A stretch of 64,000 nt of DNA from Acidimicrobiia bacterium. Its GTDB lineage: Bacteria > Actinomycetota > Acidimicrobiia > Spongiisociales > UBA5794. The notes under the pieces are model-generated. The model saw only the letters and a list, made by a program, of their open reading frames with translations. It did not search any database and was not told the origin of the DNA. The stretch spans positions 2,564-66,563 of the forward strand of contig JASJDZ010000043.1 of assembly GCA_030065575.1 (NCBI GenBank), read 5' to 3'. A program made the translations under genes and the position numbers. Below, one piece after another: positions 5,555-21,633 of the stretch (position 1 is its first letter; each line of letters opens with the position of its first letter).

Positions 5555-5628
5555 CTCCAACTCGTCGTCCTATGTGTACGTGTAGGAGACGAGGTAGCGC
5601 GTTTCAATCGCCACGGGGCTTTGTTCTT

Positions 5629-5646
5629 GACACATACAAAAGTGTC
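5629..5646. promoter_or_regulatory. Inverted repeat GACACATACAAAAGTGTC upstream of the ROK regulator gene.
   Basis: It has 5-bp perfect arms (GACAC/GTGTC) around an 8-bp A-rich spacer, about 40 nt upstream of the ATG at 5686. It overlaps a TTGACA -35-like hexamer. Confidence 0.35.
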
Positions 5647-5685
5647 TGCTCAAATGGCGGAAGCATCGGGAGGAGAACGAGGCGA

Positions 5686-6852: not shown

Positions 6853-6956
6853 GGATTCAACAGAAGTGGGTAGCGGCCTATCGGCATTCCTGCCATGCGC
6901 CGCACACCCTCAACAAGGGAAAGAACCGTTATCGGAAATAGAAGGAGGAGGAGAGC

Positions 6957-7997: not shown

Positions 7998-8060
7998 TGC
8001 AATGCGTGCCGGACTCCTCTCCAGAGGGGTCCGGCACCTCCACCTATTGAGGACCTGAAT

Positions 8061-9569
8061 GTGAGCGAGGAGTTCCTGCTCGCGGCGCGCGGCGTCGCCA
8101 AGCAATACGGACCGGTTGTGGCATTGCGCTCTGCGAACCTGTCCGTCGTACCGGGGGAGATCCATGCTCTGCTGGGCGCCAACGGTGCCGGCAAGAGCAC
8201 GCTCGTCAAGATCCTGTCATCTGTCATCCGAGCCGATGCCGGCGCGATCGATGTCCACGGCGTCGAAGCCGCTCTCCAGAAGCCCACAGATTCCCTCGCG
8301 GCTGGGATCGCCACCGTTTTTCAAGATCCAGCCCTGATCCGCGACCTCACGCTGGAACAGAACCTCCGCATCTCCCGTCTGACCAAGAGCGACGTCCTGC
8401 CCTGGCTGGAGAGAATGAACCTCGGCCACATCGACTTCGACTTGCAGGTTGCCGACGTCCCTCTCGCGGTGCTCCGCCTCCTCGACCTCGCCCGAGCACT
8501 TGCCCACGATCCGCAGCTACTCATGCTCGACGAGATCACCGCCGCATTGACTACCGACCAAGCCGACTACGTCTTTGAATTGATGCAGGAGTGGAAGGAT
8601 CGCGGCCGGTCCGTCCTCTTTATCTCCCACCGCCTGGGGGAGGTGCTTGCCTCCTGCGACCGGGCCACGATTCTGCGCAACGGCGCCGATGTTGCCCACC
8701 TCGATCTAGCCGGCGTCGACGAAGGCCAGCTCGTAACGGCAATGCTGGGCGAGGAGCTGGTCGAAGAGCTAGAAGAGGCCGGCACAACTCAGGAAACCGG
8801 GCCAGCCGTTGCCGCCGGTGCTCGGGACCGGAAAGAGCGACCCGTTGTTCTCGAGTTGAAGGATGTCCACTTGCGGGACAAGGTGAACGGTATCTCCTTC
8901 GAGCTCCGTCAGGGCGAGATCCTCGGCCTGACCGCACTGGAGGGTCAGGGTCAGAAGGAGTTGTTCCAGGCCCTGAGCGGCGATCACCGACCCAGTGCCG
9001 GGGAACTGCTGGTGAAGGGAGAGCCCCTGAGGGCGCGATCCCCATACGATGCCATCCGACGGGGAGTGGTCCTCGTACCGGCAGACCGCCAGCAGGCATT
9101 GCTACCGCAACGATCGGTCCGGGAGAACCTGGCCACACCTCTCTACAACAGTGCCGGGGGCTGGCTGGCTCTGGCCGGCGACGAGAAAGAGCGCGTCGAC
9201 GGCGCCGTTGCCCGGCTGGACATCGATGTCCGCGCCGGAAGCCAGGCACAGCGACTCTCGGGCGGGAATCAGCAGAAGGTGACGATCGGCCGCTGGCTTG
9301 CCGCCGGATTCGACACCCTGCTTTGTTTCGACCCCACCAGGGGCATTGACATCCAGACCAAGGCCCAGATTTACGATCTGCTCCGGGAGGTGGCCGCCGA
9401 CGGGGCCTCGGTCATCCTCTACACGAGTGAGTTGCGGGAGATCCAACTCGTGTGCGATCGGGTACTTGTGATGTACGCCGGCCGCATTGTCAACGAACAG
9501 GATGCTGCAACCGCAACCGAGGAATCCATGCTGAGCGCTGCCCACGGTCTGAAAGAGGTCCCGGCATGA
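8061..9569 (+). CDS. Sugar ABC transporter ATP-binding protein with duplicated ATPase domains.
   Basis: It has two Walker A motifs (GANGAGKST, and a degenerate one in the second half) and an LSGGNQQKV signature. At about 500 aa it resembles RbsA/XylG/MglA. Confidence 0.9.
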   Translation: MSEEFLLAARGVAKQYGPVVALRSANLSVVPGEIHALLGANGAGKSTLVKILSSVIRADAGAIDVHGVEAALQKPTDSLAAGIATVFQDPALIRDLTLEQNLRISRLTKSDVLPWLERMNLGHIDFDLQVADVPLAVLRLLDLARALAHDPQLLMLDEITAALTTDQADYVFELMQEWKDRGRSVLFISHRLGEVLASCDRATILRNGADVAHLDLAGVDEGQLVTAMLGEELVEELEEAGTTQETGPAVAAGARDRKERPVVLELKDVHLRDKVNGISFELRQGEILGLTALEGQGQKELFQALSGDHRPSAGELLVKGEPLRARSPYDAIRRGVVLVPADRQQALLPQRSVRENLATPLYNSAGGWLALAGDEKERVDGAVARLDIDVRAGSQAQRLSGGNQQKVTIGRWLAAGFDTLLCFDPTRGIDIQTKAQIYDLLREVAADGASVILYTSELREIQLVCDRVLVMYAGRIVNEQDAATATEESMLSAAHGLKEVPA

Positions 9570-10579
9570 CCTCCACTTCCCCGGATGCGCTGGTTGCCGG
9601 TACGCAGGCGCCCTGGCGTCGCTGGCTACGCCGTCATGGTTGGACATTGGGTGTCTGGCTCCTCCTGTTCCTGCTGATCGCCTATTACGCCACTCTCATT
9701 CCACGGTTCGGCGCCTTCCAGGTTGCGTCGATCGTCAACAACGCAACACCGCTCGTCTTCCTCGCCGTTGCCCAGGCCGTGATCGTTATCGCCGGGGGCA
9801 TCGATCTCGGCGTGGGCGGCATGCTTGTCCTGTCCAGCGTCACCGCAGCGCGGTTAATGGAGGGCCAACCCTTCGGCGTCACCATTGTTCTCGCTGTACT
9901 GATCCTTCTTGCCGCCGCGGTCATCAACTCCGGCGTTGGCTGGATCATCACCCGATCCAATGTGCCCGACATCGTTATCACTCTCGGATCTCTGTATGTG
10001 TTCCAGGGCTTGGCGCTCGCGGTCCTTCCCAACCCGGGGGGAGGGACGAGCGAGGGATTCCGCTGGCTGTTCACCGGATCTGACACCGGAATCGGCACCA
10101 ACCCGTGGCCGGCCGCTGTCATGATGACGGTAGCCGTGGCCGCGGTCGCCTGGTGGATGGGCAAGACCAGGAGTGGTCTGTCTCTGTACGCTGCTGGGAG
10201 CGATAGGACTGCCGCTTTCCTCTCAGGGATCAACGCCGATCGCGTCAAGATCATGGCCTATGCGGTCGGTGGCGCCTTCGCTGCCCTGGCCGGGTTGGCC
10301 AACACAGCAATCGCGGGTCGCGGCAACGCAACGACGGTGGGCGGCAATCTCACGCTCAACTCGGTCGCAGCGATCGTGCTCGGTGGTGTCGCCCTCACCG
10401 GCGGAATTGGGTCTGCCATTGCAGTAGTGCCCGCCGGGATCATCCTGTTCTTCCTCAATCCGATCCTCACCGCAATGGGAGTCGACCCGAGTAGTGCCCA
10501 GGTGATCCAGGGCGTTCTGATCGTGTTTGTGATGGCGGCGACGGGGATAATCGAATGGCGAAGGAGGAGGCAGGCATGA
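9566..10579 (+). CDS. Sugar ABC transporter permease.
   Basis: It is a polytopic membrane protein of the RbsC/AraH type. Its ATG overlaps the ATPase stop as ATGA. Confidence 0.8.
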   Translation: MTSTSPDALVAGTQAPWRRWLRRHGWTLGVWLLLFLLIAYYATLIPRFGAFQVASIVNNATPLVFLAVAQAVIVIAGGIDLGVGGMLVLSSVTAARLMEGQPFGVTIVLAVLILLAAAVINSGVGWIITRSNVPDIVITLGSLYVFQGLALAVLPNPGGGTSEGFRWLFTGSDTGIGTNPWPAAVMMTVAVAAVAWWMGKTRSGLSLYAAGSDRTAAFLSGINADRVKIMAYAVGGAFAALAGLANTAIAGRGNATTVGGNLTLNSVAAIVLGGVALTGGIGSAIAVVPAGIILFFLNPILTAMGVDPSSAQVIQGVLIVFVMAATGIIEWRRRRQA

Positions 10580-11577
10580 GCACGGATCTCATCCCTCTCT
10601 CCGAGGAAGAAGCCGCCGTCTCTGGTCGACAGAAGGCCGCCCGGTACCTGGTCAACCATCCCCACCTCGTACTCATCGGCGTCCTTGTCTTGCTGATCAT
10701 CCTGACCGGGCTCATCGAACCGAATTACCTGAGCATCAACGGCCTCCGCAATTCGGCGCTGTTTGCCGTTCCGATCGGCATACTCGCTGCGGGTCAGACG
10801 ATCCTGATGTTGACGGGCGGTATCGACCTGTCGGCGGCGATGATCGCCACCGGGGCCGCCTACATTGCCGCAAACCAATCGCCACAGGGTGCGGTGATCG
10901 CCATCCTGGGTGGTCTGCTCGTTGGTTTCCTGGCCGGTGCCGCCAACGGCATCGGGGTCGGGATCTTCCAGGTCAACCCTCTGATCATGACCCTCGCCAT
11001 GTCGGGCATCCTGCTGGGCCTATTCACTTCGTGGGCGCAGACAATCTTCTCGGGGTCAACCCGCATGGGTGACTTCATCAGGACGTTGGGAGGCGGATCG
11101 TTCTTCGGTCGGGCCATACCTTGGGCAGTGGTCGTCTGGGCGGTGCTTTCGGTGTTTGTTGTCTACATGCTGCGCCGGAGCGGTTTCGGACGGAACCTCT
11201 ATGCCCTCGGTGACAACCCTGCCGTCGCCCGCCTGTCCGGCACCCGGGCTTGGCAGGTCCTGATCATTGTGTACACGATGGCCGGCGTCTTCGCTGCCAT
11301 AGCCGGTCTCTTGCTCGGCGGTCGGGTCGGAGCCGTCGATCTCCAACTGGCCGGGGTGTTCCTACTTCCGTCGGTGGCGGCGGCGGTCATCGGCGGAACA
11401 TCCATCTTCGGCGGAATCGGCACCTACACCGGCACCATCCTCGGCGCCCTGATTCTCGGCGTGCTCCAATCGCTTCTCACGTTCCTCGGGGCAGGCCAGG
11501 CCGTGCAACAAATGCTGTACGGCAGCATCGTCATCGGTTTGTCCTGGCTCTACACCAGGATTTCCGCAGCACAGTAA
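10576..11577 (+). CDS. Sugar ABC transporter permease (second subunit).
   Basis: It is a polytopic membrane protein. Its ATG sits after AGGAGGAGG and overlaps the upstream stop as ATGA. Confidence 0.8.
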   Translation: MSTDLIPLSEEEAAVSGRQKAARYLVNHPHLVLIGVLVLLIILTGLIEPNYLSINGLRNSALFAVPIGILAAGQTILMLTGGIDLSAAMIATGAAYIAANQSPQGAVIAILGGLLVGFLAGAANGIGVGIFQVNPLIMTLAMSGILLGLFTSWAQTIFSGSTRMGDFIRTLGGGSFFGRAIPWAVVVWAVLSVFVVYMLRRSGFGRNLYALGDNPAVARLSGTRAWQVLIIVYTMAGVFAAIAGLLLGGRVGAVDLQLAGVFLLPSVAAAVIGGTSIFGGIGTYTGTILGALILGVLQSLLTFLGAGQAVQQMLYGSIVIGLSWLYTRISAAQ

Positions 11578-11581
11578 GGAG

Positions 11582-12745
11582 ATGGTCGACATGCATCTGA
11601 GCGAGATCAAAGCAGGTGTGGTCGGCGTCGGTTTCATTGGGGTTGCCCACGTTGAAGCGCTGCGTCGACTCGGAGTCGATGTGGTCGGTGTCGTGGGCTC
11701 AAGCCCGGAAAGAGCCAGGGCGAAGGCGGAGGCGGCGAATCTGCCGCGCGTCTACGACGGCATAGAGGCAATGGCCGCCGATCCCGAGATCGATGTCATC
11801 CACATCGCCAGTCCCAACTACGCACATGCCGGGCAAGCGCGGATAGTCCTCGACGCCGGCAAGCATGTTGTTTGTGAGAAGCCGCTGGCGCTGACGTCAG
11901 AGGAGACGGCGGATCTCGTGGCCAGGGCAGCAACCGCCGGGCTCGTCAACGCCGTTTGCTTCAACATCCGCTTCTATCCGAATTGCCATCAGGCCAGATC
12001 CCTCGTGGCATCCGGCGACATCGGCACTCCCCGGTTGATCAGCGGCAGCTACCTGCAGGACTGGTTGCTGCTCGAGACCGACTGGAACTGGCGCCTCGAG
12101 TCGGAGAAGGCTGGGGCGCTGCGTGCTGTTGCCGACATTGGCTCACACTGGCTCGACCTGGCCCGGTTCATCACCGGGGCGCATGTGACGGAAGTGATGG
12201 CTGATCTTCACACCTTCGTCAAGACTCGCAAGCATCCGGCCGGGCCCGTCGAGACCTTCGCCGTCACCGGTGACGATGAGGAACTGATCGAGGAGGCGAT
12301 GGAGTCCGACGACAGCGCCGGGGTCTTGCTGCGCTTTGACAACGGAGCGCGAGGTGTCGTCACGATCTCGCAAGTATCGGCTGGACGTAAGAACTCAGTC
12401 TCGATCGAAGTCGACGGCAGCGAATCCGCACTGTCCTGGTTCTCGGAGAACCCTGATCATCTCTGGATCGGCCACCGGGGCCGACCGAACGAGATCCTGC
12501 AGCGAGACCCTTCCCTGGCGAGCCCGGACGCCGCTCGTACCATCGGCTACCCGGGGGGACACGTCGAGGGCTATCCCGATACGTTCCGGGCGCTCTTCGC
12601 CGAAGTCTACGCCGATGTTGCCGCCGGGGGACCGGCCGTCGATCCTCGCTATCCGACATTCGCCGACGGCCACGATGCGCTCCTGGTGACTGAGGCAGTC
12701 GCCCGGAGCTCACAAGAACAACGTTGGATCCATATCGAAAGATGA
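11582..12745 (+). CDS. Gfo/Idh/MocA-family NAD(P)-dependent oxidoreductase. The start may instead be at 11591.
   Basis: It has an N-terminal Rossmann motif (GVVGVGFIGVAHVEAL) and a consensus EKP motif (VVCEKPLA). Confidence 0.85.
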   Translation: MVDMHLSEIKAGVVGVGFIGVAHVEALRRLGVDVVGVVGSSPERARAKAEAANLPRVYDGIEAMAADPEIDVIHIASPNYAHAGQARIVLDAGKHVVCEKPLALTSEETADLVARAATAGLVNAVCFNIRFYPNCHQARSLVASGDIGTPRLISGSYLQDWLLLETDWNWRLESEKAGALRAVADIGSHWLDLARFITGAHVTEVMADLHTFVKTRKHPAGPVETFAVTGDDEELIEEAMESDDSAGVLLRFDNGARGVVTISQVSAGRKNSVSIEVDGSESALSWFSENPDHLWIGHRGRPNEILQRDPSLASPDAARTIGYPGGHVEGYPDTFRALFAEVYADVAAGGPAVDPRYPTFADGHDALLVTEAVARSSQEQRWIHIER

Positions 12746-12755
12746 GGAGGAAAGC

Positions 12756-13670
12756 ATGAAGCTCGGTTTGCTCACCGCACCCTTCCCGGAGACGCCTCTC
12801 GACGAGGTCGCCGACTGGACCGCTGGCAATGGGTTCACCGCAATCGAGATCGCCTGCTGGCCGGCCACCAGCGGTGATACCCGTCGCTACGCCGGTACCA
12901 GCCATATCGATGTCGACGAGATCTCCGATACCGAGGCGTCAGACATAATGGGCGGGATGAAAGACCGGGGCCTGGAAGTGTCGGGTCTCGGCTACTACCC
13001 CAACCCGCTCCACCCCGATCAGGCGCACGCACGGATGGTTATTGACCATCTGAAGAAGGTGATCGTGGCCGCAGGCAAGATGGGTGTGCCCGTAGTCAAT
13101 ACCTTCGTTGGTGCCGACCGTGCACTGACTCAGGATGAGAACTGGGAAAAGGCGACCCGGGTGTGGCCGGAAATCGTGAATTGCGCCGCTGACAACGGTG
13201 TCAAGATCGCCATTGAGAACTGCCCGATGATCTTCTCCAAGGACGAGTGGCCGTCTGGTCACAACGTCGCCTACAACCCAAAGACATGGCGAAGGATGTT
13301 CGAGGAGTTCGGCGAGACGGTCGGCCTCAACTTCGACCCATCGCACCTGATCTGGCTGATGATCGACATTGAGCAAGCCATCCTGGAGTTCGGGGAACGG
13401 TTCTACTTCTTCCAGGCGAAAGACGTCATGATCGACTACGAAGGTCTCTACGAGAACGGAAGCCTGTCCTCAGGCATGGGCTGGCAGGTTCCGCGTCTTC
13501 CCGGGCTCGGCGACGTTGATTGGGCGATCGTGTTCCGTTCGCTCTACCGGGTCGGCTACGACGGGCCGATCATCATTGAACATGAGGATCGTGACTTCGA
13601 GCAGACAGACGACCTGGTCAAGCGCGGGTTCCTGCTCGCCCGCGACGTACTGGCGCCATACGTCCACTAG
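12756..13670 (+). CDS. Sugar phosphate isomerase/epimerase (xylose-isomerase-like TIM barrel).
   Basis: It has a TIM-barrel fold with metal-ligand His/Glu/Asp positions, similar to IolE/LgdB/DgpB-type enzymes. Confidence 0.85.
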   Translation: MKLGLLTAPFPETPLDEVADWTAGNGFTAIEIACWPATSGDTRRYAGTSHIDVDEISDTEASDIMGGMKDRGLEVSGLGYYPNPLHPDQAHARMVIDHLKKVIVAAGKMGVPVVNTFVGADRALTQDENWEKATRVWPEIVNCAADNGVKIAIENCPMIFSKDEWPSGHNVAYNPKTWRRMFEEFGETVGLNFDPSHLIWLMIDIEQAILEFGERFYFFQAKDVMIDYEGLYENGSLSSGMGWQVPRLPGLGDVDWAIVFRSLYRVGYDGPIIIEHEDRDFEQTDDLVKRGFLLARDVLAPYVH

Positions 13671-13687
13671 AGCCTAGAACTACAGCT

Positions 13688-15022
13688 TTGAGGAACTACC
13701 AGGAGCACGGCCGATATGACGTGGTGGTCGTCGGATCCGGTTCTGCCGGGTCGACGGCCGCCATTGCATCAGCGCGCGCAGGCGCAAGGACGTTACTGAT
13801 CGAGAAACTTCCGTTCCTCGGTGGCAATTCGACTGCGGTACTGGACACGTTCTACGGCTTCTACACACCGGGGGAGAGGGCCCGCAAGGTCGTGGCCGGG
13901 ATCGGTGACGATGTTGTCGCCGGACTCAAGGCGCTCGGGGAGGTGGTGGTGCGCCCCAACACCTATGGCGCCGGTACGGGGGTGACCTACCTGGCAGAGC
14001 ACTTGAAGGTTGTTTGGGAAGGCCTCGTCCTGACCGCAGGTGTGGATGTTCTCCTCCACGCCTTCGTTCAGGACGCAGGCGGAACCGACGGGCGCGTCAA
14101 CGAGCTCGTTGTTGCCACCAAGGCGGGCCTGATGCGTGTCGAGGCGACCACGGTCGTAGACGCTTCAGGCGATGCCGATGTCTGTCACCACGCAGGGCTC
14201 GGATACGAGCTCGCAGGATCGATCGCACCGGCACAGACGCTGACAACCACCTTCCGCATGGCCAACGTCAACATGGATAGGCGGAGGACGATCACCAAGG
14301 ACGACCTCCACGCCGTAATGGCTGAGGCCGCTGAGTCAGGCGACTACGACCTGCCGCGCCGGGAAGGCAGCGACCACATCACCCCGGTCGACGGGATGAT
14401 TGCCACCGTGATGACGCGAATCAATCACGTCGTGAAGGAAGATGACGGTACCGTGCGCAACGCTACCGACCCGAACCTCCTCACTGCTGCGGAGATCGAA
14501 GGCAGACGGCAAGCCCTCGAGTACGCAAGATTCCTGATCGATCGGGTACCCGGCTACGAGAACGCGGCAATCGTTGCCCTGTCCAGCCAGATCGGTCTCC
14601 GCGAGACGCGCCGCGTCTACGGCGACTACCGGCTGTCCCGAGCAGACGTTCTCGCCGCTCGGCAATTTGACGATCAGATCGGTCTGTGCGGAGCACCCAT
14701 CGAGGATCACCACGGTGGCGCCGGGACAGGCACGACCTGGGAGTACCTCCCCGAAGGCGAAGCAGTGGGCATCCCACTGCGAACCCTGATCGCGCGAGAT
14801 GGGCAGAACGTAATGATTGCGGGTCGTTGCTTCTCAGCCGAGCACGACGCACAGGCTTCTGTGCGCTCGATGGCTCAATGCATGGCAATGGGACAGGCGG
14901 CGGGAGTCGTCGCCGCGCTTGCCGCCGGGAGCGGCGGTGAGGTGAGATCGGTTCCAACTGCTGACGCTCAGACCGCACTTCGCAATGCCGGTGCGGTGCT
15001 GAGCATCGGGGAGGCCGGCTAG
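13688..15022 (+). CDS. FAD-dependent oxidoreductase.
   Basis: It has a TTG start and an N-terminal dinucleotide-binding motif (DVVVVGSGSAGSTAAIASA...LLIEK). At about 444 aa it resembles the FAD_oxidored / HI0933-like class. Confidence 0.75.
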   Translation: MRNYQEHGRYDVVVVGSGSAGSTAAIASARAGARTLLIEKLPFLGGNSTAVLDTFYGFYTPGERARKVVAGIGDDVVAGLKALGEVVVRPNTYGAGTGVTYLAEHLKVVWEGLVLTAGVDVLLHAFVQDAGGTDGRVNELVVATKAGLMRVEATTVVDASGDADVCHHAGLGYELAGSIAPAQTLTTTFRMANVNMDRRRTITKDDLHAVMAEAAESGDYDLPRREGSDHITPVDGMIATVMTRINHVVKEDDGTVRNATDPNLLTAAEIEGRRQALEYARFLIDRVPGYENAAIVALSSQIGLRETRRVYGDYRLSRADVLAARQFDDQIGLCGAPIEDHHGGAGTGTTWEYLPEGEAVGIPLRTLIARDGQNVMIAGRCFSAEHDAQASVRSMAQCMAMGQAAGVVAALAAGSGGEVRSVPTADAQTALRNAGAVLSIGEAG

Positions 15023-15988
15023 ATGGCGTTCGTGCGTACGGTTACCGGGGACGTGCCACCACACGAACTCGGTGTTACCTATGCACATGAGCACGTCGTG
15101 CTCGATGCGCCGATTGCGCAAGACCGCTTTCCTCACGCGTTTCTCGATGACGACGACGCAGCCTTATCAGAACTACGCGCTTGCGCCGAGGTAGGTGTGA
15201 AGGCGATGGCCGATGCGCTTCCGTGTGCGATCGGCCGGCACCCGGAACGCCTTGCAGAAATCAGCCGCGCCGTCGGCGTTCACATCATCGCCAGCACCGG
15301 CGCTCACACCAGCAAGTGGTATCCAGGGCTCTCCTGGGCCAACGAGCTACCGGCACCACAACTGACCGAGCTGTTTGTCGCCGATATCGAAATTGGGATC
15401 GACCGGTTCGACTACTGCGGGCCGGTAATCGAGCGGACACCCCATCGCGCAGGCCTCATCAAAGTTGGCACCCTTCAGGACGACCCCAACGAGCGTGACC
15501 GGCGAACCTTCGCCGCAGCGGCCGCGACCCACCGCCGCACCGGCGCACCGATCATTACTCACTGCGAGGAGGGAAGGGGTGGCCGGGAGCAGATTGAGCT
15601 CTTCGCTGAGTACGGCATCAGCCCAGATTGTGTAGTGCTTTCCCATACGGACAAGGTCCAAGACGTTGGCTACCACCTGGACCTGGTGGGGGCGGGGGCC
15701 TTCCTCGAGTTTGATCAAGCACTCCGCCATCCGATAGGTCCGACCAATCCGACCGTGCGTATCGTCACCGAGTTGGTGTCGTCTGGCTTCGGGTCCCAGG
15801 TGATGCTTGGCACCGACGGTGCTCGTCGCTCTCTGTTGACGGCATACGGGGGAGCGCCGGGATTGGCGGCGCTGGCAACCGGCGTGACGGAAGCACTCAA
15901 GAACGAGGGGGTCTCGGATGAGTCTCTCAATACCATCTTCGTCGATAACCCCGCTCGATTCTTCAGTTTCCGCGAGGTGGCAGAATGA
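15023..15988 (+). CDS. Phosphotriesterase-family (PTE/PHP) metal-dependent hydrolase, possibly a lactonase.
   Basis: It has the HxH metal motif (THEHVV) at the N-terminus of an amidohydrolase TIM barrel, and is about 321 aa. Confidence 0.8.
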   Translation: MAFVRTVTGDVPPHELGVTYAHEHVVLDAPIAQDRFPHAFLDDDDAALSELRACAEVGVKAMADALPCAIGRHPERLAEISRAVGVHIIASTGAHTSKWYPGLSWANELPAPQLTELFVADIEIGIDRFDYCGPVIERTPHRAGLIKVGTLQDDPNERDRRTFAAAAATHRRTGAPIITHCEEGRGGREQIELFAEYGISPDCVVLSHTDKVQDVGYHLDLVGAGAFLEFDQALRHPIGPTNPTVRIVTELVSSGFGSQVMLGTDGARRSLLTAYGGAPGLAALATGVTEALKNEGVSDESLNTIFVDNPARFFSFREVAE

Positions 15989-17037
15989 CGGATGTCGGCC
16001 GGCCATACCCGGACAGGGCTATCGCCGTCGGGAAACTCGCTCCCGGCATCGGCAATCTTGGGCTTCGCACTCAGGCTGTCAGGCGACCGGCGGAGGACGA
16101 AGCGGTGCTCGAGATCATTGCGACCGGCATCTGCGGTACCGATCTTCACATCGCAGACGACGAGTTCCCCTCCGAGCCGCCGGTGACGATGGGTCACGAG
16201 ATCACCGGAGAGGTTGCTGGGATCGGATCCGGCGTCGACTCCTCATGGTTGGGTGCGAGGGTTGTCTGCGAGACCTACTTCGCGACCTGCGGGGCGTGCA
16301 TCTACTGCCGCAACGGGAAGCCGAACCTATGTGCTGGGCGACGATCAATCGGCTCCCGTGTCGACGGCGGCTTTAGCCGCTGGCTGACCATCCCGGTTCG
16401 TAACCTATGGCGAGTGCCCGACCATGTCGGCAGGCACGGCGCAGCGCTAGCGGAACCACTCGCCTGTGTAGCGCGATGCATCTTCGATCCTCCGGTCATC
16501 AATCCCGGAGATAGCGTCCTTGTCGTCGGTCCCGGCGCTATGGGCCAGCTGACCGCCCAGTGCGCTCGGGCTGCGGGAGGAGTAGTCACGCTCGTGGGTC
16601 TGCAGCGTGACTCGGCGCGCCTCGAAGTGGCAGCGTCGATGGGTTTCAATGTGGTCGAGGCCGATGGCGACGTGACCGATCTCGGCGAGTTCGATGTCGT
16701 TGCCGAAGCATCCGGTAGCGAGGGTGGCGCTCGCACCGCACTCGACTCTGTCCGCAAGGGTGGGGCGTACATCCAGGTAGGCATCTTCGGCAAGCCAATC
16801 CAGGCGATGCTGGATGCATTCGTGTACGGGGAGCTGATTGTGCGGTCGGCGAACGCCAGCACCCCGAGTTCCTGGCGGAGAGCGATGCTGCTCCTCGATT
16901 CCGGCCTGATCGACCTTGATCGGCTGGTGAGCGACGTGTACGCACTCGAGGATTGGGAACAGGCATTCGCCGCCACCAGGGCTGGACAAGGGCTCAAAAT
17001 CGTTATCGATCCTCGTCTCCCGGCTCGCAACACCTGA
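15985..17037 (+). CDS. Zinc-dependent medium-chain alcohol/polyol dehydrogenase.
   Basis: It has a catalytic Zn motif (GHEITGEV), a structural Zn motif (CGACIYCRNGKPNLC) and a GPGAMG NAD motif. Its start overlaps the upstream stop. Confidence 0.85.
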   Translation: MTDVGRPYPDRAIAVGKLAPGIGNLGLRTQAVRRPAEDEAVLEIIATGICGTDLHIADDEFPSEPPVTMGHEITGEVAGIGSGVDSSWLGARVVCETYFATCGACIYCRNGKPNLCAGRRSIGSRVDGGFSRWLTIPVRNLWRVPDHVGRHGAALAEPLACVARCIFDPPVINPGDSVLVVGPGAMGQLTAQCARAAGGVVTLVGLQRDSARLEVAASMGFNVVEADGDVTDLGEFDVVAEASGSEGGARTALDSVRKGGAYIQVGIFGKPIQAMLDAFVYGELIVRSANASTPSSWRRAMLLLDSGLIDLDRLVSDVYALEDWEQAFAATRAGQGLKIVIDPRLPARNT

Positions 17038-17065
17038 CTCGACAATTGGCCGAAAGGAAGTTCGC

Positions 17066-17878
17066 ATGACTATCGGAGCAACACCCGAAGCAAGTTGGAG
17101 GACTGCCCTCATCGGCCCCAGCGCAGTCGTGACCGGCGTATCGAACGGCATCGGTAGATCGATCGCTGTTGCCCTGGCCGAGGCAGGGGCAAACGTGGCT
17201 GGGTGTTACGGGTCGGATCACCAAGGTGCGCAGCGGGTTCGCAACCAGATTGCCGCCACGGGCAGGGACTCTTACATCATCCAGGCTGACACGGGAGATC
17301 CCGCCACGGCTGAGACTCTGGCCACCGAAGCCGTTGATCGGTGGGGATCCCTCGACATCTGGGTCAACAATGCCGCTCGGCTCATGGTCAAGCCCGTTGT
17401 GGAAACCACCGACGAGGATTGGCACGGCCTGCTGGCGGCCAATCTTCACGGCTTCTTCTACGGCTCGCGGGCTGCAGCAACGATCATGTACGGCCAGAAG
17501 CGTGGCCGCATCATCAACATCACATCTGCGGCAGACGTTCTGGTAGTAGAGAATCTCGGTACCTACATCGCAGCCAAGGGCGGGATCATCGGGCTTACGA
17601 AGACCCTGGCTCTAGAAGCCGCGCGGCATCAGGTCACCGTGAACGCCGTATCCCCGGGGGCCATCGATACCCCTCTGAATCTGAAGGCGTACACACCAGA
17701 GGTGCGTCGTACCTACGAAGCACGGATCCCGCTCGGACGGATCGGCGCGGAGGATGAGATCGCCGACGTGGTCGCCTTCGTTGCGTCGAACGCCTCCCGC
17801 TACCTCACCGGCCAAGAGATCGTTGTTGACGGCGGACTGGTGATCAACGGCACTGTCGGTCACGCCCTGGACGAATGA
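17066..17878 (+). CDS. SDR-family oxidoreductase.
   Basis: It has a TGVSNGIGRS cofactor motif, an NNAA motif and a YIAAK catalytic dyad. Confidence 0.85.
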   Translation: MTIGATPEASWRTALIGPSAVVTGVSNGIGRSIAVALAEAGANVAGCYGSDHQGAQRVRNQIAATGRDSYIIQADTGDPATAETLATEAVDRWGSLDIWVNNAARLMVKPVVETTDEDWHGLLAANLHGFFYGSRAAATIMYGQKRGRIINITSAADVLVVENLGTYIAAKGGIIGLTKTLALEAARHQVTVNAVSPGAIDTPLNLKAYTPEVRRTYEARIPLGRIGAEDEIADVVAFVASNASRYLTGQEIVVDGGLVINGTVGHALDE

Positions 17879-18726
17879 TGGGCCGGGTCAATGCAATCGA
17901 GGTGCTGGTCGAAGGGCTCGACCACCCCGAGGGTGTCGCCTACGACCACCACTCGGGGATCCTGTACGCAGGGGGCGAAGCGGGCCAGATCTACGCAATT
18001 GATCCCGAGGAACGTACCGTCCGAGAGATCGCAAGAACTCCCGGATTCGTGCTCGGCCTGGCTGTCGATGGTCGCGGCCGTTTGGTCATCTGCGACTCGG
18101 TTGACGCAGCCATCTGGGTGCTCGAGGACGGCAGGCTACGGCGGCTCCTCGACCGCGCCGGAGATCGCAAGCTAATGCTGCCCAACTACCCGGCATTCGG
18201 CCCGGACGGAACCCTCTACTTCTCCGATTCGGGCAAATGGAAGGAGAACAACGGTGCGATGATCCGGGTGGCTCCCGACGGGGAGGCGACTGTGCTCGAC
18301 GCAACCCTCAATCGGTTCACCAACGGTTGTGCAGTGACCCCAGACGGTTCTGAACTCTGGGTGGTCCAGTCCTTGGGCCCGGTGGCCAAGATCAGCCTGA
18401 CCGGCGAGGGAACCGCGGAGGTTGCTGTCGAGCTCCCGGGCACGATCCCCGACGGAGTCGCATTCACCAAAGACGGGGGAGCGGTTCTCACTTGCTACCG
18501 CCCGGATCGTATCTACTACCTGGACCGGGATGGCAGGTTAGAGATCCTGGCTGAGGATCCGGAGGGAACCCTGATGGCTGCCCCGACCAACGTCTGCTTC
18601 CTGGGTGGCGATCGCACGACCTTGGTCTCGGCCAACCTGGGACGATGGCACTTGACGCTGCTGGAGACCGATCTGACCGGCGTCGTTCCCCATGCCCCGG
18701 AGACTTGGGCGGCTGACGTGTTATGA
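17875..18726 (+). CDS. SMP-30/gluconolactonase/LRE-family lactonase.
   Basis: It has six-bladed propeller signatures (EGVAYD, GRLVICD, PNYPAFGPDGTLYFSD, PDGVAF). Its start overlaps the upstream stop as ATGA. Confidence 0.8.
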   Translation: MMGRVNAIEVLVEGLDHPEGVAYDHHSGILYAGGEAGQIYAIDPEERTVREIARTPGFVLGLAVDGRGRLVICDSVDAAIWVLEDGRLRRLLDRAGDRKLMLPNYPAFGPDGTLYFSDSGKWKENNGAMIRVAPDGEATVLDATLNRFTNGCAVTPDGSELWVVQSLGPVAKISLTGEGTAEVAVELPGTIPDGVAFTKDGGAVLTCYRPDRIYYLDRDGRLEILAEDPEGTLMAAPTNVCFLGGDRTTLVSANLGRWHLTLLETDLTGVVPHAPETWAADVL

Positions 18727-19712
18727 GCATTCAGGAAGAGAACGCAAGCGGGCGGCTACCCAACCTCGATTCGGCACTCTGGATTCGAGAGTCCGTCATT
18801 GCGTCGGGTGCTGCGGAGGGGACACGTGCGATCGACGTCCGACCGTGGGGAGGCATTGGCTGCCGCGTCTATCCCGATCGCGGGCTCGACATCGGGCAAG
18901 CCTGGTTCGGCGACACTCCCTTGGCCTGGACGTCGCAGGTGGGGGAGTCAGGGCCGTTACAGAATCTGGAGGGCATGTCCTGGGGCGAGGCCTTTGGTGG
19001 GGGACTGCTGGTGACTTGCGGGATGCGCAACGTTGGCATGCCGTCCGAAGGTCACGGGCTACACGGGACGTACTCGCATCTGCCGGCATCAGATGTACGG
19101 ACTGGAGCAGTCGTCGGTGACCAGGATGCTGCGGTGGTGATCACCGGCGTCGTGCACGATGAGGAGCCGCCGGCACCTCTCCAACTGCAGCGAACCATAC
19201 GAATCGCAGCCGGTCGAGGCCGTATCGATGTCGAGGATCTCATCACCAACACGGGCGACGAACCGGCCGAGGCTCCTCTGCTGTATCACTGCAACTTTGG
19301 CTATCCGCTGTGGTCGCCTCCGGCCCATTTGCGCATTCCCGCGGTGGCGGCAACCCACGCCCGCGATACTGAATCGGAGGTAGCGCTGGACACGTGGCAC
19401 ATCCCTCCTTCGCTCGAAGTCGCCCCCGAGCGCGTTCTCGAGCACGTAATTTCTGCGGGCACCACTCAGGGCCAAGCAATGATCACGAACTCCGAGTTGG
19501 GCATCGCGGTCGAGGTCGGCTGGGACCGGGCTGAGTTACCTCGCCTCAATCAATGGCTGGACCCCAACCCCGGAATGGCTGTGCTCGGTATCGAACCCGC
19601 CAACTGCTCAACGCGAGGGCGCAGCTTCGATCGTGCCTCCGGGGCCTTGCCCTGGCTCCAGCCCGGTGAAGCAAGAATCACCCATCTGTGGATCGAGGCT
19701 CGGGGGGTATGA
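18723..19712 (+). CDS. Aldose-1-epimerase-like (DUF4432 / galactose-mutarotase-fold) protein.
   Basis: It has a mutarotase-like beta-sandwich with an HCNFGYP motif, and is translationally coupled to the lactonase gene. Confidence 0.6.
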   Translation: MSIQEENASGRLPNLDSALWIRESVIASGAAEGTRAIDVRPWGGIGCRVYPDRGLDIGQAWFGDTPLAWTSQVGESGPLQNLEGMSWGEAFGGGLLVTCGMRNVGMPSEGHGLHGTYSHLPASDVRTGAVVGDQDAAVVITGVVHDEEPPAPLQLQRTIRIAAGRGRIDVEDLITNTGDEPAEAPLLYHCNFGYPLWSPPAHLRIPAVAATHARDTESEVALDTWHIPPSLEVAPERVLEHVISAGTTQGQAMITNSELGIAVEVGWDRAELPRLNQWLDPNPGMAVLGIEPANCSTRGRSFDRASGALPWLQPGEARITHLWIEARGV

Positions 19713-19738: not shown

Positions 19739-20440
19739 CTAGCTGAGTAGAGCCGCAGCGGGCTCATCCGCATACACGATTGTGTTCCCGTGCTGGCGCA
19801 GATACGACGCAGGCACCTCCGGGCCAATCGGCCCGGACACCGCCCGTTCCAGGATCTCGGCTTTGTGCCGACCTGAGACCAGCAGCCAGATCTCTTCCGC
19901 GGCAAGCAGCGTCCCCATCCCAAGCGTTATCCCCCAGGTTGGTCGAGCTGTTGCCCCGTAACGGGCTGCGTTCTGCTGGGTCGACGGGTCCAACTCAACA
20001 ACACGTGTTCGCGAGTCAGACCTCGAGCCCGGCTCGTTCATGCCGATATGCCCATTGCCGCCCAGCCCGACAACGGCCAGGTCGAGCCCGCCATCGGCGA
20101 TCACATCTTCAAAGCGTTCGCACTCCTCTTGCAGTGAGGCTGCGGTCACATCGAAGGTGTACAAGGCATCGGGTGGGGTAGGAAGTCGCTGCAAGAGCGC
20201 CCTATCGAGCATCTCGTCGCAGCGTCCGAGATCACCGACCGGGAGAAGGAACTCATCGAGCAGGAACACCTCTGTGCCTTCCAGAGACCCGCCAGAAGCC
20301 GTGAACTCGGCATAGACGGGCTCGGGTGTGCTCCCAGTAGCGAGACACACGCGCAACCCATTTCGCAGGGAGACGAAGCGAACGAGTCGGGCCCCGACAG
20401 CCGGGGCCCACTCGTCAGCCGCAAAGATCTCGAGTTTCAC
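19739..20440 (-). CDS. nagB: Glucosamine-6-phosphate deaminase.
   Basis: It has the NagB/Pgl signature [16 protein letters not shown] and an N-terminal LATGSTP motif. The GTG start overlaps the upstream gene's stop as GTGA. Confidence 0.8.
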
Positions 20441-21633
20441 CCGTCGGTGACGATATCGAAGATCGACCCTGTGTCCTTGTCGCTGAGGATCAGCTTCTTC
20501 CGTCCGTCCGGCAGGACCTCTTCCTTGACCACGGCGTGACCATCGTGGAACGAGTTGGTCTTGGCAATCCGCTCGGTTGCGCCCCCGCGCCACTCGACGT
20601 TGACGGGTTCCCACTGCCTGGTCTCGGCGGAGCGGTAGGCGGCGTCCATGATCGCGTTGACCACGTAACCGTCGTAGAAGGTCTCCATAGGCTCCGTGCC
20701 GTTCTCGATGGCATCGAACATATCGGTGAACATGTCGACATAGCCGAGCTCGGAGACTTCGTCGCCAACCGGGAATAGCCAGCCCTCAGTGGATTCGAGC
20801 TTCTCCGCGACGTATCCCTCTCCGCCACCGGATGAGTACATCTCATACCCGGTCCGCAGGAAGTGATTGAGCCAGATCGTGCCCTCGGTCCCGGCGACCT
20901 CGTCACGCAGGTCCATACCACCACGGAACGACCAGCTCACCTCGAATTGGCCAATCGCACCCGATTCGAAACGGATGAGCACTACGGCGTTGTCCTCCGC
21001 CTTGATGGGATGAACGAGCGTGTCGGCCCACGCCATGACATCGAGCGGCCGATTGCCCTTGCCGACGAAGTTGCGAATGATCTCAATGCAATGGCAGCCC
21101 AGGTCGACAATGGCGCCACCCCCGGCCTTGTCCTTGTCCCAGAACCATGCGCTGTGAGGCCCGGGATGAGTCTCTCGGGAGCGCACCCAGGTGACATCGC
21201 CGATGGCGCCTCCGTTGACCGCTGCTATCGCCTTGAGCGTCTTGGGTGTGTAGCACAGATCCTCTAGGTAACCGGCGAAGATCCCGGCTTGCTCGACCCG
21301 GTCGAGGATTCGCTTGGCTTCTTCGCCGGAGCGGGCCAACGGCTTCGTGCATAGGACGGGCTTGCCCGCAGCGGCGATGAGATCGATCGCTTCCTCGTGA
21401 AGGAAGTTGGGGAGAGCGACAACGACCACATCGACCGCAGGGTCGTTGATCGCGTCCTCGATACTCGTTGTGTGGCGAGGGATGCCCCATCGCTCGGCAA
21501 ATGCCTGACCACGCTCCTCGGTTCTCGAGTAGACAACCCCGACTCGATCCCGGCCGCGCTGGCCGTGGAGAGTCATCGTGTAGAAGTCTCCGATCAGCCC
21601 GGTCCCGAGCATGGCAATCGTGCGTCCTTCCAT
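20437..21633 (-). CDS. Gfo/Idh/MocA-family oxidoreductase.
   Basis: It has a Rossmann motif ([13 protein letters not shown]) and a CTKPLA (EKP-like) motif. It is the first gene of a two-gene operon with nagB. Confidence 0.85.

Follow-up and report, generated by a model that had tools for sequence, protein, structure and literature searches.

Two nonhomologous lactonase folds are encoded beside two dehydrogenases in a 64,000-nucleotide stretch of genome from an uncultured Acidimicrobiia bacterium (contig JASJDZ010000043.1; hereafter, the window), which raises the question of whether both hydrolases serve a single pathway. An earlier note on this DNA had described a unit of five genes, encoding a phosphotriesterase (PTE)-like hydrolase, a Zn-dependent dehydrogenase (ZnADH), a short-chain dehydrogenase (SDR), an SMP-30/gluconolactonase (SGL) propeller, and a DUF4432 protein, that pairs two lactonases with two dehydrogenases.

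Junctions and boundaries of the five-gene block

The open reading frame list and Pfam confirm all five genes, with the families and coordinates given earlier (Table 1). The Pfam matches of all five proteins exceed the Pfam cut-offs, and catalytic motifs are intact in each. The sequence itself shows ATGA overlaps at three junctions (15985, 17875, and 18723); the overlap at 18723, previously set apart as a separate kind, is of the same type as the other two. A second ATG in the SGL gene, at 17878, is the NCBI start (282 aa) and would give a 1-nt TGATG overlap. The description of every gene as starting no more than 4 nt from the stop before it holds for three of the four internal junctions and fails at the fourth: a 28-nt gap lies between the end of ZnADH (stop, 17035-17037) and the ATG of SDR (17066), and within this gap the SDR gene has its own ribosome-binding site, AAAGGAAG, 5 nt upstream of the ATG.

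Obligate coexpression and matched stoichiometry had been read from these overlaps. An in-frame start at −4 to 0 of the upstream stop occurs, however, in 16 of the 44 same-strand adjacent open reading frame pairs of the window, so three overlapping junctions out of four are unremarkable in this genome. Because tight spacing is the norm here, the overlaps by themselves establish neither property and say nothing special about stoichiometry. The 5′ boundary of the block is arbitrary, since the TAG of a PF12831 flavoprotein gene (15020-15022) directly adjoins the PTE ATG (15023).

Table 1. Features of the locus, in window coordinates
Feature	Coordinates	Strand	Length (aa)	Basis and remarks
ROK-family sugar kinase	3031..3942	-	303	Pfam ROK, 179.6 bits; 3′ of GntR gene, divergent unit
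GntR/HutC-type regulator with UTRA effector domain	3939..4658	-		Pfam GntR + UTRA; divergent from operon
SIS_2 sugar-isomerase-domain protein	4754..5554	+		Pfam SIS_2, 131 bits; first array gene
ROK protein with N-terminal extension	5551..6852	+	433	Pfam ROK, residues 122-418
Periplasmic sugar-binding protein, CUT2-type ABC transporter	6957..7997	+		Pfam Peripla_BP_4, 184 bits
ABC ATPase (8061-9569) and two BPD_transp_2 permeases (9452-10579, 10555-11577)	8061..11577	+		Pfam
Gfo/Idh/MocA NAD(P) sugar/cyclitol dehydrogenase (GFO1)	11582..12745	+		Pfam
Xylose-isomerase-like TIM-barrel protein	12756..13670	+		Pfam AP_endonuc_2, 117 bits
PF12831 FAD-dependent oxidoreductase	13688..15022	+		Pfam FAD_oxidored, 335 bits; stop abuts PTE start
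PTE-family (amidohydrolase-superfamily) binuclear metal hydrolase	15023-15988	+	321	Pfam PTE (PF02126), 157 bits
Zn-dependent medium-chain dehydrogenase (ZnADH)	15985-17037	+	350	Pfam ADH_N / ADH_zinc_N, 85 and 46 bits
Classical SDR	17066-17878	+	270	Pfam adh_short_C2, 210 bits; after 28-nt spacer with AAAGGAAG
SMP-30/gluconolactonase/LRE (SGL) six-bladed β-propeller	17875-18726	+	283	Pfam SGL (PF08450), 69.5 bits
DUF4432 protein (aldose-1-epimerase-like)	18723-19712	+	329	Pfam PF14486, 243 bits; last array gene
NagB/6-phosphogluconolactonase-family protein	19739-20614	-		Pfam, NCBIfam; true start probably further downstream
Second Gfo/Idh/MocA dehydrogenase (GFO2)	20437-21633	-		Pfam, NCBIfam; convergent pair with NagB-like gene, 19739..21633

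The block within a larger candidate operon

Judging from spacing, we favor, with some reservation, a reading of the five genes as the distal third of a ∼15-kb, 14-gene same-strand uptake and catabolism operon (4754-19712). The array runs SIS_2, ROK, ABC transporter, Gfo/Idh/MocA, xylose-isomerase-like TIM barrel, and FAD oxidoreductase before the five genes. The ROK gene overlaps the SIS_2 gene by 4 nt, in-frame starts of the permease genes overlap the upstream stops in the junction analysis, and terminator-like sites are not enriched within the array. A divergent GntR/UTRA regulator and ROK kinase lie on one flank and a convergent NagB-like/Gfo pair on the other. The closest loci are from Acidimicrobiia metagenome-assembled genomes.

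The predicted products lean moderately toward a carbohydrate (or cyclitol or amino sugar) as the substrate class. The SIS_2 protein scores 258 bits on NCBIfam NF002805 (cut-off, 135). In size and domain layout, the array ROK protein resembles NagC/Mlc-type regulators; its score on the NagC model (144 bits) does not reach the cut-off. The ROK kinase matches the ROK glucokinase subfamily model at 160 bits, also below cut-off. PDB relatives of the sugar-binding protein are monosaccharide binders (best, 4pe6, 112 bits), and no NCBIfam equivalog was found for it. GFO1 matches 6a3f (which we take to be levoglucosan dehydrogenase; 141 bits) and 5ya8 (scyllo-inositol/L-glucose dehydrogenase; 114 bits) and scores 174 bits, below cut-off, on NCBIfam LevoglcsnDh. 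The TIM-barrel protein has 2zds as its sole PDB relative and is 83-89% identical in close relatives. The flavoprotein starts at TTG 13688 or GTG 13721 (the NCBI call, 433 aa; P0121), and no characterized relative of it was found by sequence or by fold.

No enzyme of the locus reaches an NCBIfam equivalog cut-off, and for this reason we assign no substrate. The window contains no aldonate dehydratase, 2-keto-3-deoxygluconate (KDG) kinase, or aldolase to finish an oxidative route. We regard the locus as a conventional, though uncharacterized, catabolic one.

Two hydrolases with intact active sites

The earlier note would have been undermined by an incomplete binuclear site in the PTE-like protein. 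In the alignment, all of the ligands (H22/H24/K147/H180/H208/D265) are present and do not vary among 15 subfamily members, and the protein looks catalytically competent. R235, R268, and R269 are invariant in the same subfamily alignment. The best PDB matches are Lmo2620 (3pnz, 147 bits) and MS53_0025 (3msr/3ovg, 135 bits for 3msr), both full length, and Mycobacterium tuberculosis Php (4if2, 124.5 bits). At the positions of R235 and R268, the phospho-sugar lactonases 3pnz and 3msr likewise have basic residues, whereas Php has Val and Cys. The best NCBIfam model is the phospho-furanose lactonase NF045706, although at 153.5 bits against a cut-off of 630 the protein is no equivalog. By sequence, then, the PTE-like protein is closest to phospho-sugar lactonases. 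That it is itself a lactonase, as previously stated, we infer only, since PF02126 also holds amidohydrolases such as PTER, which acts on N-acetyltaurine and N-acetyl-β-alanine (PMC11374699, PMC13311154).

That precedent leaves room for a role as an amidohydrolase or deacylase on an anionic N-acyl intermediate derived from amino sugars, which would make this an amino-sugar locus. Genes of the NagB, ROK, SIS, and HutC-type GntR families are conserved neighbors, as such a pathway would have it, and a NagA-like Amidohydro_1 gene, absent from the window, adjoins the cluster in two related loci (L085 and L168). We nevertheless consider a deacylase quite unlikely, given that its nearest relatives of solved structure, like its best NCBIfam model, are phospho-sugar lactonases, that the transporter is of the monosaccharide CUT2 type, and that neither an aminotransferase nor a deaminase other than the NagB-like protein is present.

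NCBI names the protein "aryldialkylphosphatase," and PLL and PTE structures can be recognized as homologs at about 90 to 108 bits, as would be expected of a quorum-quenching N-acyl-homoserine-lactone lactonase or organophosphate hydrolase that happens to lie in a sugar operon. These scores fall below those of the sugar-lactonase relatives, and the invariant Arg residues are missing from Php. Moreover, the gene is in stop/start contact with sugar-metabolic genes, a placement kept in dozens of loci. We judge this explanation extremely unlikely.

The SGL protein keeps E18/N103/N149/D192, all invariant. Its AF2 model (pLDDT 95.3) superposes best on bona fide β-propeller lactonases (Foldseek TM 0.84 to RPA3624 and 0.80-0.82 to SMP30), and the best PDB sequence match is the propeller domain of Deinococcus SodC (52 bits). 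We read it as a probable sugar lactonase, and it looks catalytically competent. Characterized SGL lactonases typically act on neutral aldonolactones.

ZnADH carries C50/H71/E72, the structural-zinc cysteines C102/C105/C108/C116, and GPGAMG at 182. Its best PDB matches are 4ej6 and threonine-dehydrogenase-like entries; all its NCBIfam matches are below cut-off, with threonine dehydrogenase and IolM models scoring higher than L-idonate/gluconate 5-dehydrogenase ones. The SDR has TGVSNGIG at 23, NNAA at 101, and S154/Y167/K171, and its PDB neighbors are generic and FabG-like. The DUF4432 protein matches 3ty1, a "hypothetical aldose 1-epimerase" and the only solved member of the family, over nearly its full length (74 bits). 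H114, H189, and E291 are invariant in 53 members, and we found no characterized member of the family.

Two lactonase folds in separable modules

The PTE-like protein seeded a synteny survey of 83 loci, with denominators that differ per neighbor. Of 262 matches, the 80 closest supplied the metagenomic loci, which carry no taxonomy, so the frequencies describe this PTE-like subfamily and not all PTE genes. The flavoprotein gene immediately precedes the PTE-like gene in 37 of 46 loci, whereas ZnADH comes next after it in 10 of 51. The evolutionary partner of the PTE-like protein is therefore the upstream FAD oxidoreductase, which fell outside the coordinates first considered. This coupling is strong but not absolute, because the PTE gene directly follows the TIM-barrel gene, with no flavoprotein, in L093, L131, and L167. 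SGL was found in 3 of 34 PTE-seeded loci, DUF4432 in none of 27, and all five genes in none of 27.

In the closest relatives (L001, L003, L004, L005, and L008), the five genes stay together without interruption. The cluster is nonetheless split in other relatives, an outcome the earlier note had named as counting against it: L007 and L009 lack SGL, and L090, whose PTE is 65% identical, lacks both SGL and DUF4432. All four combinations of SGL and DUF4432 presence and absence exist; these two genes are optional add-ons. SDR follows ZnADH in 13 of 13 loci, and the two travel as their own inseparable pair, which occurs with PTE but without SGL in L085, L090, L101, L112, and L128. PTE is found without the downstream genes in L083 (SIS_2-FAD oxidoreductase-PTE) and L086 (transporter-GFO-TIM-FAD oxidoreductase-PTE). 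Conversely, L170 to L172 lack PTE and read ROK / ZnADH-SDR-SGL-DUF4432-HAD / GntR / SIS_2. Since ZnADH-SDR-SGL-DUF4432(-HAD) occurs without PTE, the two lactonase folds lie in modules that can occur apart and have been joined in this lineage, and the five genes are not the unit that had been proposed.

Several flanking genes recur as well. The GntR/UTRA regulator gene is found beside both modules, and SIS_2 occurs in 17 of the 25 long PTE-seeded loci and also beside the PTE-less module. ROK kinase homologs adjoin the cluster in L085, L093, L100, L131, L134, and L170-172. The convergent pair is kept beside the PTE module (GFO2 in 16 and the NagB-like gene in 11 of 25 long loci).

The earlier note had proposed one linear pathway with two successive lactones (e.g., 1,5- and then 1,4-, or from two successive oxidations), with one dehydrogenase of the block making each lactone and a dedicated lactonase opening it. 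The intact active sites of both hydrolases and the contiguity of the genes in the closest relatives are what it would predict. Such a pathway should not, however, tolerate the loss of either lactonase, yet ZnADH-SDR is found with either one in the absence of the other, and PTE covaries with the flavoprotein rather than with ZnADH/SDR; we consider it unlikely. Redundancy, in which the PTE-like and SGL proteins cleave the same sugar lactone as nonorthologous isofunctional enzymes and this lineage carries both, has a precedent in UxuL and UxuF, different lactonases for the same hexaro-1,5-lactones (PMC6353982), and SGL is dispensable in L007, L009, and L090. Interchangeable enzymes should alternate within one module, but here each has its own module and partners, and the invariant Arg cluster of the PTE-like protein suggests an anionic substrate, in contrast to the typically neutral ones of SGL lactonases. 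Redundancy is thus very unlikely. The suggestion that the two hydrolases act on different intermediates fits both their intact sites and their separate modules, and it is the most likely one.

A two-module model

We propose, with moderate confidence, that two separable modules have been fused in this lineage to form the operon. This model builds on gene content, motifs, modularity, and synteny statistics, which are direct observations; every substrate and reaction in it is interpretation. The first module would be a widespread core of SIS_2, ROK, CUT2 ABC transporter, Gfo/Idh/MocA, xylose-isomerase-like TIM-barrel, PF12831 flavoprotein, and PTE-like genes. In it, the PTE-like protein would work with the flavoprotein encoded just upstream and most likely hydrolyze a lactone or other ester/amide intermediate that is anionic and probably phosphorylated; the core also carries kinase, SIS, and NagB-family genes, all phospho-sugar handling. 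The second module, ZnADH, SDR, SGL, and DUF4432, would be an accessory oxidative-aldose branch. There, the mutarotase-like DUF4432 protein may supply the correct anomer, an NAD(P) dehydrogenase may oxidize C1, and the SGL propeller may open the resulting neutral aldonolactone, after which the ZnADH/SDR pair could interconvert the acid sugar via a keto intermediate, much as IdnD/IdnO or LgnH/LgnI do. On balance, the two lactonase folds would then serve different steps in different modules and form no matched set with the dehydrogenases. The most useful lead is the conserved trio of SIS_2, PF12831 flavoprotein, and PTE-like protein.

Comparison with known systems

The metal site of the PTE-like protein (HxH / carboxylatable Lys / His / His / Asp) is that of Lmo2620 and MS53_0025, which also have basic residues opposite R235 and R268. 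Only two of the four presumed phosphate-contact positions of Lmo2620 are basic in the PTE-like protein, the others being Pro and Leu. These characterized enzymes sit in PTS sugar operons, whereas the PTE-like gene here accompanies an ABC transporter and directly follows a flavoprotein gene.

The SGL protein has the six-bladed propeller (TM 0.78-0.84) and Glu/Asn/Asn/Asp residues of the SMP-30-type lactonases RPA3624, human SMP30, XC5397, and Caulobacter XylC, although identity is only 17-24%. XylC adjoins XylB in the oxidative xylose pathway, and SGL is likewise beside an SDR dehydrogenase. The His/His/Glu of DUF4432 fits what we take to be the catalytic pattern of galactose mutarotase (GalM)/aldose 1-epimerase. 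In other phyla, DUF4432 genes sit with an FGGY kinase, a class II aldolase, and a fucose-isomerase-like gene and so accompany isomerase/kinase/aldolase pathways, not lactonases as here.

IdnD/IdnO of Escherichia coli and LgnH/LgnI of Paracoccus L-glucose catabolism belong to the same dehydrogenase types as ZnADH/SDR and are likewise encoded side by side. Both proteins here match L-idonate 5-dehydrogenase and gluconate 5-dehydrogenase models, below equivalog cut-offs, and the similarity of GFO1 to 5ya8 is a further likeness to the Lgn system. LgnH/LgnI are a precedent for the epimerization of an aldonate at C5, with the pathway logic set out in PMC12632266; unlike in these aldonate C5-epimerizing systems, the window holds no aldonate dehydratase, kinase, or aldolase.

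UxuL and UxuF of oxidative hexuronate catabolism usually replace one another. They are a precedent for the recruitment of unrelated lactonase folds to sugar-acid pathways (PMC6353982), but whereas they share lactones, the two folds described here belong to separate modules and probably differ in substrate.

Organization of the locus

The five genes for the PTE-like, ZnADH, SDR, SGL (SMP-30) and DUF4432 proteins form the last third of a 14-gene, ~15-kb same-strand array. Their ORFs and family assignments in the earlier note were right, each protein scoring above its Pfam gathering score; the statement that no more than 4 nt separate each start from the stop before it was wrong at one junction, where the ZnADH stop (17035-17037) and the SDR ATG (17066) are separated by 28 nt with AAAGGAAG within. 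Read directly from the sequence, the junctions at 15985, 17875 and 18723 are ATGA overlaps, and the overlap at SGL would be 1 nt from its second ATG (17878), the start of the 282-aa NCBI protein P0241. The TAG of the upstream flavoprotein gene (15020-15022) touches the PTE-like ATG, giving junction spacings of 0, -4, +28, -4/-1 and -4 nt from the flavoprotein gene to DUF4432, and the 5' edge of the five-gene block is an arbitrary cut. Obligate co-expression and, as probable, matched stoichiometry had been read from the tight junctions. In a crude gene set covering the whole window, 16 of 44 same-strand neighbors have an in-frame start at -4 to 0 of the upstream stop; overlapping junctions are therefore the norm in this genome and carry no special message on stoichiometry.

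Genes of the array and its immediate flanks
Feature	Coordinates	Strand or orientation	Evidence and remarks
GntR/UTRA regulator and ROK kinase	4658-3031	divergent from array	
SIS_2 protein	4754-5554	+	Pfam; NCBIfam NF002805 "sugar isomerase domain-containing protein," 258 bits vs 135
ROK protein	5551-6852	+	433 aa, N-terminal extension
Peripla_BP_4 binding protein	6957-7997	+	
ABC ATPase and two BPD_transp_2 permeases	8061-11577	+	
Gfo/Idh/MocA dehydrogenase	11582-12745	+	
Xylose-isomerase-like TIM barrel	12756-13670	+	
PF12831 FAD oxidoreductase (flavoprotein)	13688 or 13721 to 15022	+	TTG 13688, or GTG 13721 (NCBI, 433 aa)
PTE-like, PF02126	15023-15988	+	Pfam 157.4 bits vs cut-off 22.4
ZnADH	15985-17037	+	Pfam ADH_N / ADH_zinc_N above gathering scores
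SDR	17066-17878	+	Pfam adh_short_C2 210 bits, above gathering score
SGL, PF08450	17875-18726	+	Pfam 69.5 bits vs 26.3
DUF4432, PF14486	18723-19712	+	Pfam 243 bits vs 32.5
NagB/Pgl-family gene and second Gfo/Idh/MocA gene	19739-21633	convergent on array's 3' end	

Terminator-like sites within the array showed no excess over shuffled expectation, and no promoter-like sites were returned; for high-GC actinobacterial sequence such as this, the scan is uninformative. Gene spacing suggests a single transcript, and we read the locus as a putative operon for sugar-type uptake and catabolism, built from separable modules. The longest NagB-like ORF (19739-20614) overlaps the Gfo/Idh/MocA gene by 178 nt, and its homologs measure 233 to 245 aa; the true start of the gene probably lies further downstream. 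The PTE-like protein is identical to NCBI protein P0001 of an Acidimicrobiia metagenome-assembled genome (MAG), and the nearest loci are in Acidimicrobiia MAGs.

Ten larger ORFs scanned at 25-44 kb are housekeeping genes, with no dehydratase, kinase or aldolase among them that would complete an oxidative pathway. At 23639-27418, a Pyr_redox_2/Fer4_20 flavoprotein gene (552 aa) is followed by genes for POR_N/PFOR_II and TPP_enzyme_C subunits with overlapping junctions, which makes up a cluster of the 2-oxoacid:ferredoxin oxidoreductase type to which an NAD(P)H-flavin/FeS protein is attached. A 487-aa ORF at 42291-43754 has no Pfam match at E <= 1e-6.

Synteny of the five-gene block

Loci (designated by L numbers) were collected from three independent seeds: DUF4432 (185,579 species genomes scanned, then tblastn synteny), PTE (a metagenome scan plus contexts of PTE homologs, 83 loci) and SGL. 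From the DUF4432 seed, the whole block is found again in L001, L003, L004, L005 and L008, the nearest relatives within Acidimicrobiia, and two more loci (L007 and L009) carry PTE-ZnADH-SDR-DUF4432 without the SGL gene. Counting only PTE-seeded loci with enough flanking sequence to judge, the PF12831 flavoprotein gene lies directly upstream of PTE in 37 of 46 and ZnADH directly downstream in 10 of 51; SGL is present in 3/34, DUF4432 in 0/27, and all five genes occur together in 0/27. These frequencies describe this PTE subfamily, the metagenomic loci being the closest 80 of 262 matches. Across all loci, DUF4432-seeded ones included, SDR follows ZnADH in 13 of 13.

Individual loci end or change composition at different points. 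One consists of SIS_2-flavoprotein-PTE followed by unrelated genes (L083), and another of a transporter-Gfo-TIM-flavoprotein-PTE array that ends there (L086). In L090, whose PTE-like protein (65%) is as close as that of L001, ZnADH-SDR is followed by Meth_synt_2-like and HAD genes, with no SGL and no DUF4432. Among the SGL-seeded loci, L168/L169 read Gfo-TIM-PTE-ZnADH-SDR-SGL-HAD, with no flavoprotein and no DUF4432 gene, while L170-L172 read ROK (minus strand), ZnADH-SDR-SGL-DUF4432-HAD, GntR/UTRA (minus strand) and SIS_2, and their 15-19 kb contain no gene for PTE, flavoprotein, Gfo or TIM barrel; PfkB-SDR-KDPG-aldolase genes lie next door in L170. All four presence-absence combinations of SGL and DUF4432 occur.

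The natural units are thus flavoprotein plus PTE with SIS_2, Gfo, TIM barrel and transporter (with ROK, module A) and the ZnADH-SDR pair, to which SGL and DUF4432 are optional additions (module B). The cluster, whose integrity in close relatives the earlier note had left to be checked, is split, for example in L007/L009, which lack SGL, and in L090, which lacks SGL and DUF4432. That two lactonase folds stand in one operon is explained by a fusion of modules in one lineage of Acidimicrobiia. We disfavor the alternative of one pathway in which two lactones follow each other, since either lactonase is lost independently of the other. We hold the modular account of the locus with high confidence.

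Several neighboring patterns were recorded in the course of these comparisons. Approximately 70 DUF4432 loci in other phyla have neighbors of quite another kind, namely FGGY kinase, class II aldolase and L-fucose-isomerase-like genes together with a PocR/AraC regulator; no SGL or PTE gene was detected in them with the window proteins, except for a distant PTE match ~7 kb off in L044. In L011-L080 (Firmicutes, Victivallales, Anaerolineae and others), DUF4432 is ~33% identical and set in an isomerase-type sugar pathway, which may be the family's main context. In L006 (CAXMQO010000062.1, binned Saprospiraceae), a contig of 4.9 kb assigned to a Bacteroidota MAG, DUF4432 is 56% identical to that of the window and none of the usual neighbors was detected; the gene may reflect a binning error or transfer. 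In L093, L131 (=L168/L169) and L167, the PTE-like gene comes straight after the TIM-barrel gene and the flavoprotein gene is absent; two of the three carry SGL without DUF4432. A HAD-family phosphatase gene ends the ZnADH-SDR-SGL(-DUF4432) module in L168-L172 (e.g., L170 10214-10870) and has no counterpart in the window, whose array closes with DUF4432. Its presence hints that an intermediate of module B, too, is phosphorylated.

The PTE-like protein

The PF02126 match is near full-length, with residues 13-314 covering model positions 3-297 of 298. In the alignment to 3pnz, the ligands of the binuclear site fall on H22, H24, K147, H180, H208 and D265, which are invariant in 15 subfamily members. 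The ligand set of the putative metal site is thus complete (HxH, bridging carboxylatable Lys, two His and Asp), so the doubt that the earlier note had raised about a missing ligand does not apply. In a PDB sequence search, the solved relatives ranked 3pnz (147 bits), 3msr/3ovg (135 bits) and M. tuberculosis Php 4if2 (124.5 bits). The entry 3pnz is Lmo2620 and 3msr/3ovg is MS53_0025, both phospho-sugar lactonases. The best NCBIfam model was the phospho-furanose lactonase NF045706 (153.5 bits; cut-off, 630). By these scores, the protein is a relative of characterized lactonases and not an equivalog.

R235, R268 and R269 are also invariant in the 15 members. In the alignment, R235 and R268 stand opposite basic residues in both phospho-sugar lactonases and opposite Val and Cys in 4if2. 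Lmo2620 binds phosphate through two Lys, one Arg and one Tyr, and the positions aligned with these residues are R235, P237, R268 and L271.

Other assignments of the PTE-like protein were weighed. Its NCBI name would make it an organophosphatase; this role and that of an N-acyl homoserine lactone (AHL) lactonase are both unlikely, given a similarity ranking that places phosphotriesterase-like lactonase and PTE structures (about 90-108 bits) under the sugar-lactonase relatives, invariant Arg residues replaced by Val/Cys in 4if2, and a conserved sugar context. Redundancy, with the PTE-like and SGL proteins acting on the same lactone, has a precedent in UxuL/UxuF (PMC6353982) and is disfavored because the two proteins are placed in separate modules and the PTE-like subfamily bears the signature of an anionic substrate. 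An amidohydrolase would be in keeping with PTER, a PF02126 member that hydrolyzes N-acetyltaurine (PMC11374699), with an amino-sugar-flavored conserved context (NagB-family, ROK, SIS and HutC-type GntR genes) and with a NagA-like gene found in some relatives, though not in this locus; we consider this improbable.

The SGL, ZnADH, SDR and DUF4432 proteins

The AF2 model of SGL (pLDDT 95.3, 24 strands) has the six-bladed beta-propeller fold of PF08450. Foldseek TM scores were 0.84 to 8djf (RPA3624 lactonase), 0.80-0.82 to human and mouse SMP30 and 0.79 to Caulobacter XylC; the best structural matches also include Drp35 and XC5397. E18 (HPEG), N103 (PN), N149 (NG) and D192 (PDG) do not vary across 27 homologs and were equated to SMP30 E18/N103/N154/D204 by motif, not superposition; in the alignment with 7ris/8djf, N103 and N149 stand opposite the equivalent Asn residues. 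By sequence, SGL resembles solved lactonases weakly (25-31 bits), and its top match is a Deinococcus SodC propeller domain (52 bits).

ZnADH has residues for catalytic zinc (C50, H71/E72) and structural zinc (C102/C105/C108/C116) and GPGAMG at 182-187, and scores 100 bits against the L-idonate 5-dehydrogenase model, under the cut-off of 469. SDR has TGVSNGIG at 23-30, NNAA at 101-104, S154, Y167 and K171, and scores 172 bits against the gluconate 5-dehydrogenase model, under the cut-off of 279. DUF4432 matches 3ty1, a "hypothetical aldose 1-epimerase" (74 bits), and its H114, H189 and E291 show no variation among 53 members. GalM mutarotase has a His/His/Glu arrangement, which these residues match, and an epimerase role is predicted.

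PDB sequence searches gave no substrate clue for SDR (generic FabG-like matches), the binding protein (generic monosaccharide binders alone) or the TIM barrel (2zds alone). Among 15 locus proteins, the SIS_2 subfamily model alone passed its NCBIfam cut-off and no enzyme reached an equivalog cut-off; hence no substrate is named. Each of the proteins belongs to a known superfamily and carries its motifs, and none falls demonstrably in a characterized isofunctional family.

The flavoprotein and its partners

The PF12831 flavoprotein is 75-80% identical across >100 90%-identity clusters (homologs P0121-P0240, all named "hypothetical" or "FAD-dependent oxidoreductase"). It is much more conserved than its neighbors. 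A PDB sequence search matched solely the N-terminal FAD motif, and Foldseek with a mediocre AF2 model (pLDDT 69.5) returned only generic flavin folds (TM <= 0.45), for which reasons we draw no mechanism from the model. The literature searched gave no function for PF12831 or DUF4432. The flavoprotein is a strongly constrained enzyme without a characterized relative by sequence or fold.

The SIS_2 gene accompanies both modules, the PTE-less one included, and its product may be the element that all forms of the system share. The trio of SIS_2, PF12831 flavoprotein and PTE-like protein, strongly conserved and without any characterized function, is a more interesting lead than the two lactonase folds, and lies partly beyond the interval considered in the earlier note. 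It is possible, though somewhat doubtful, that the trio lies at the heart of a catabolic route, as yet undescribed, of Acidimicrobiia and their relatives, in which the flavoprotein would oxidize a phosphorylated or amino sugar (or cyclitol) derivative, the PTE-like enzyme would open or deacylate the product, and ZnADH-SDR-SGL-DUF4432 would serve as a substrate-range plug-in. To our knowledge, a pairing of flavoprotein oxidation with PTE hydrolysis is known for neither family. If this reading is true, DUF4432 gains its first functional context.

Proposed function

In module A, the PTE-like enzyme would take the flavoprotein's product or act in sequence with it. Its substrate is probably phosphorylated or otherwise anionic, as indicated by the invariant Arg cluster, by the relatives closest to it and by a conserved core that includes kinase, SIS and NagB-family genes. 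Oxidative aldose pathways, e.g., XylB/XylC, open in standard fashion with a mutarotase-like protein, a dehydrogenase using NAD(P) and a lactonase of the SGL type, and the mutarotase-like protein, NAD(P) dehydrogenase and SGL of module B could form such an oxidative front end. The Zn-MDR dehydrogenase with its constant SDR partner also recalls IdnD/IdnO and LgnH/LgnI, pairs through which an aldonate is epimerized at C5 via the 5-keto acid (PMC12632266), and might act similarly.

The two lactonase-like folds probably act on different intermediates, in different modules. This agrees loosely with the earlier interpretation as to different intermediates; the proposal that the lactonases partner the two dehydrogenases, and the five-gene unit itself, did not hold, the proteins belonging to separate modules. 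The specific reaction assignments are tentative and could easily be wrong; the modular account and the assignments taken together we consider rather probable.

Known routes were also considered. The canonical myo-inositol (iol) pathway is represented by IolG-like and IolE-like genes, but there is no IolD/B/C and scores are weak, and we reject it. Levoglucosan and C-glycoside pathways, prompted by the Gfo and TIM-barrel pair (6a3f and DgpA matches), gave scores far under cut-offs and offer nothing equivalent to the PTE, FAD and SIS genes.

Significance and relation to known systems

The locus reads as an ordinary high-GC catabolic operon whose two-lactonase oddity comes from the fusion of two modules, and the true co-variation is of flavoprotein with PTE and of ZnADH with SDR. 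It serves as an enzyme-discovery map, tying three families with little or no characterization (PF12831 flavoproteins, UPF0309-type SIS_2 proteins (NF002805) and DUF4432) to defined neighbors and a transporter. It is an abundant locus of Acidimicrobiia, seen in marine and sediment metagenomes; its substrate, once solved, would add a pathway of carbon turnover in a lineage that is widespread and uncultured, and would bring PF12831 and DUF4432 their first functions.

A literature search found no described pathway of this composition, and we class the locus as a modular carbohydrate catabolic operon, not a new system type. Compared with Lmo2620 and MS53_0025 (NF045706), the PTE-like protein of the window is far under the equivalog cut-off (153.5 versus 630 bits). 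The window ZnADH and SDR resemble IdnD/IdnO and LgnH/LgnI in their obligate pairing only (13/13), both scoring under the equivalog cut-offs.
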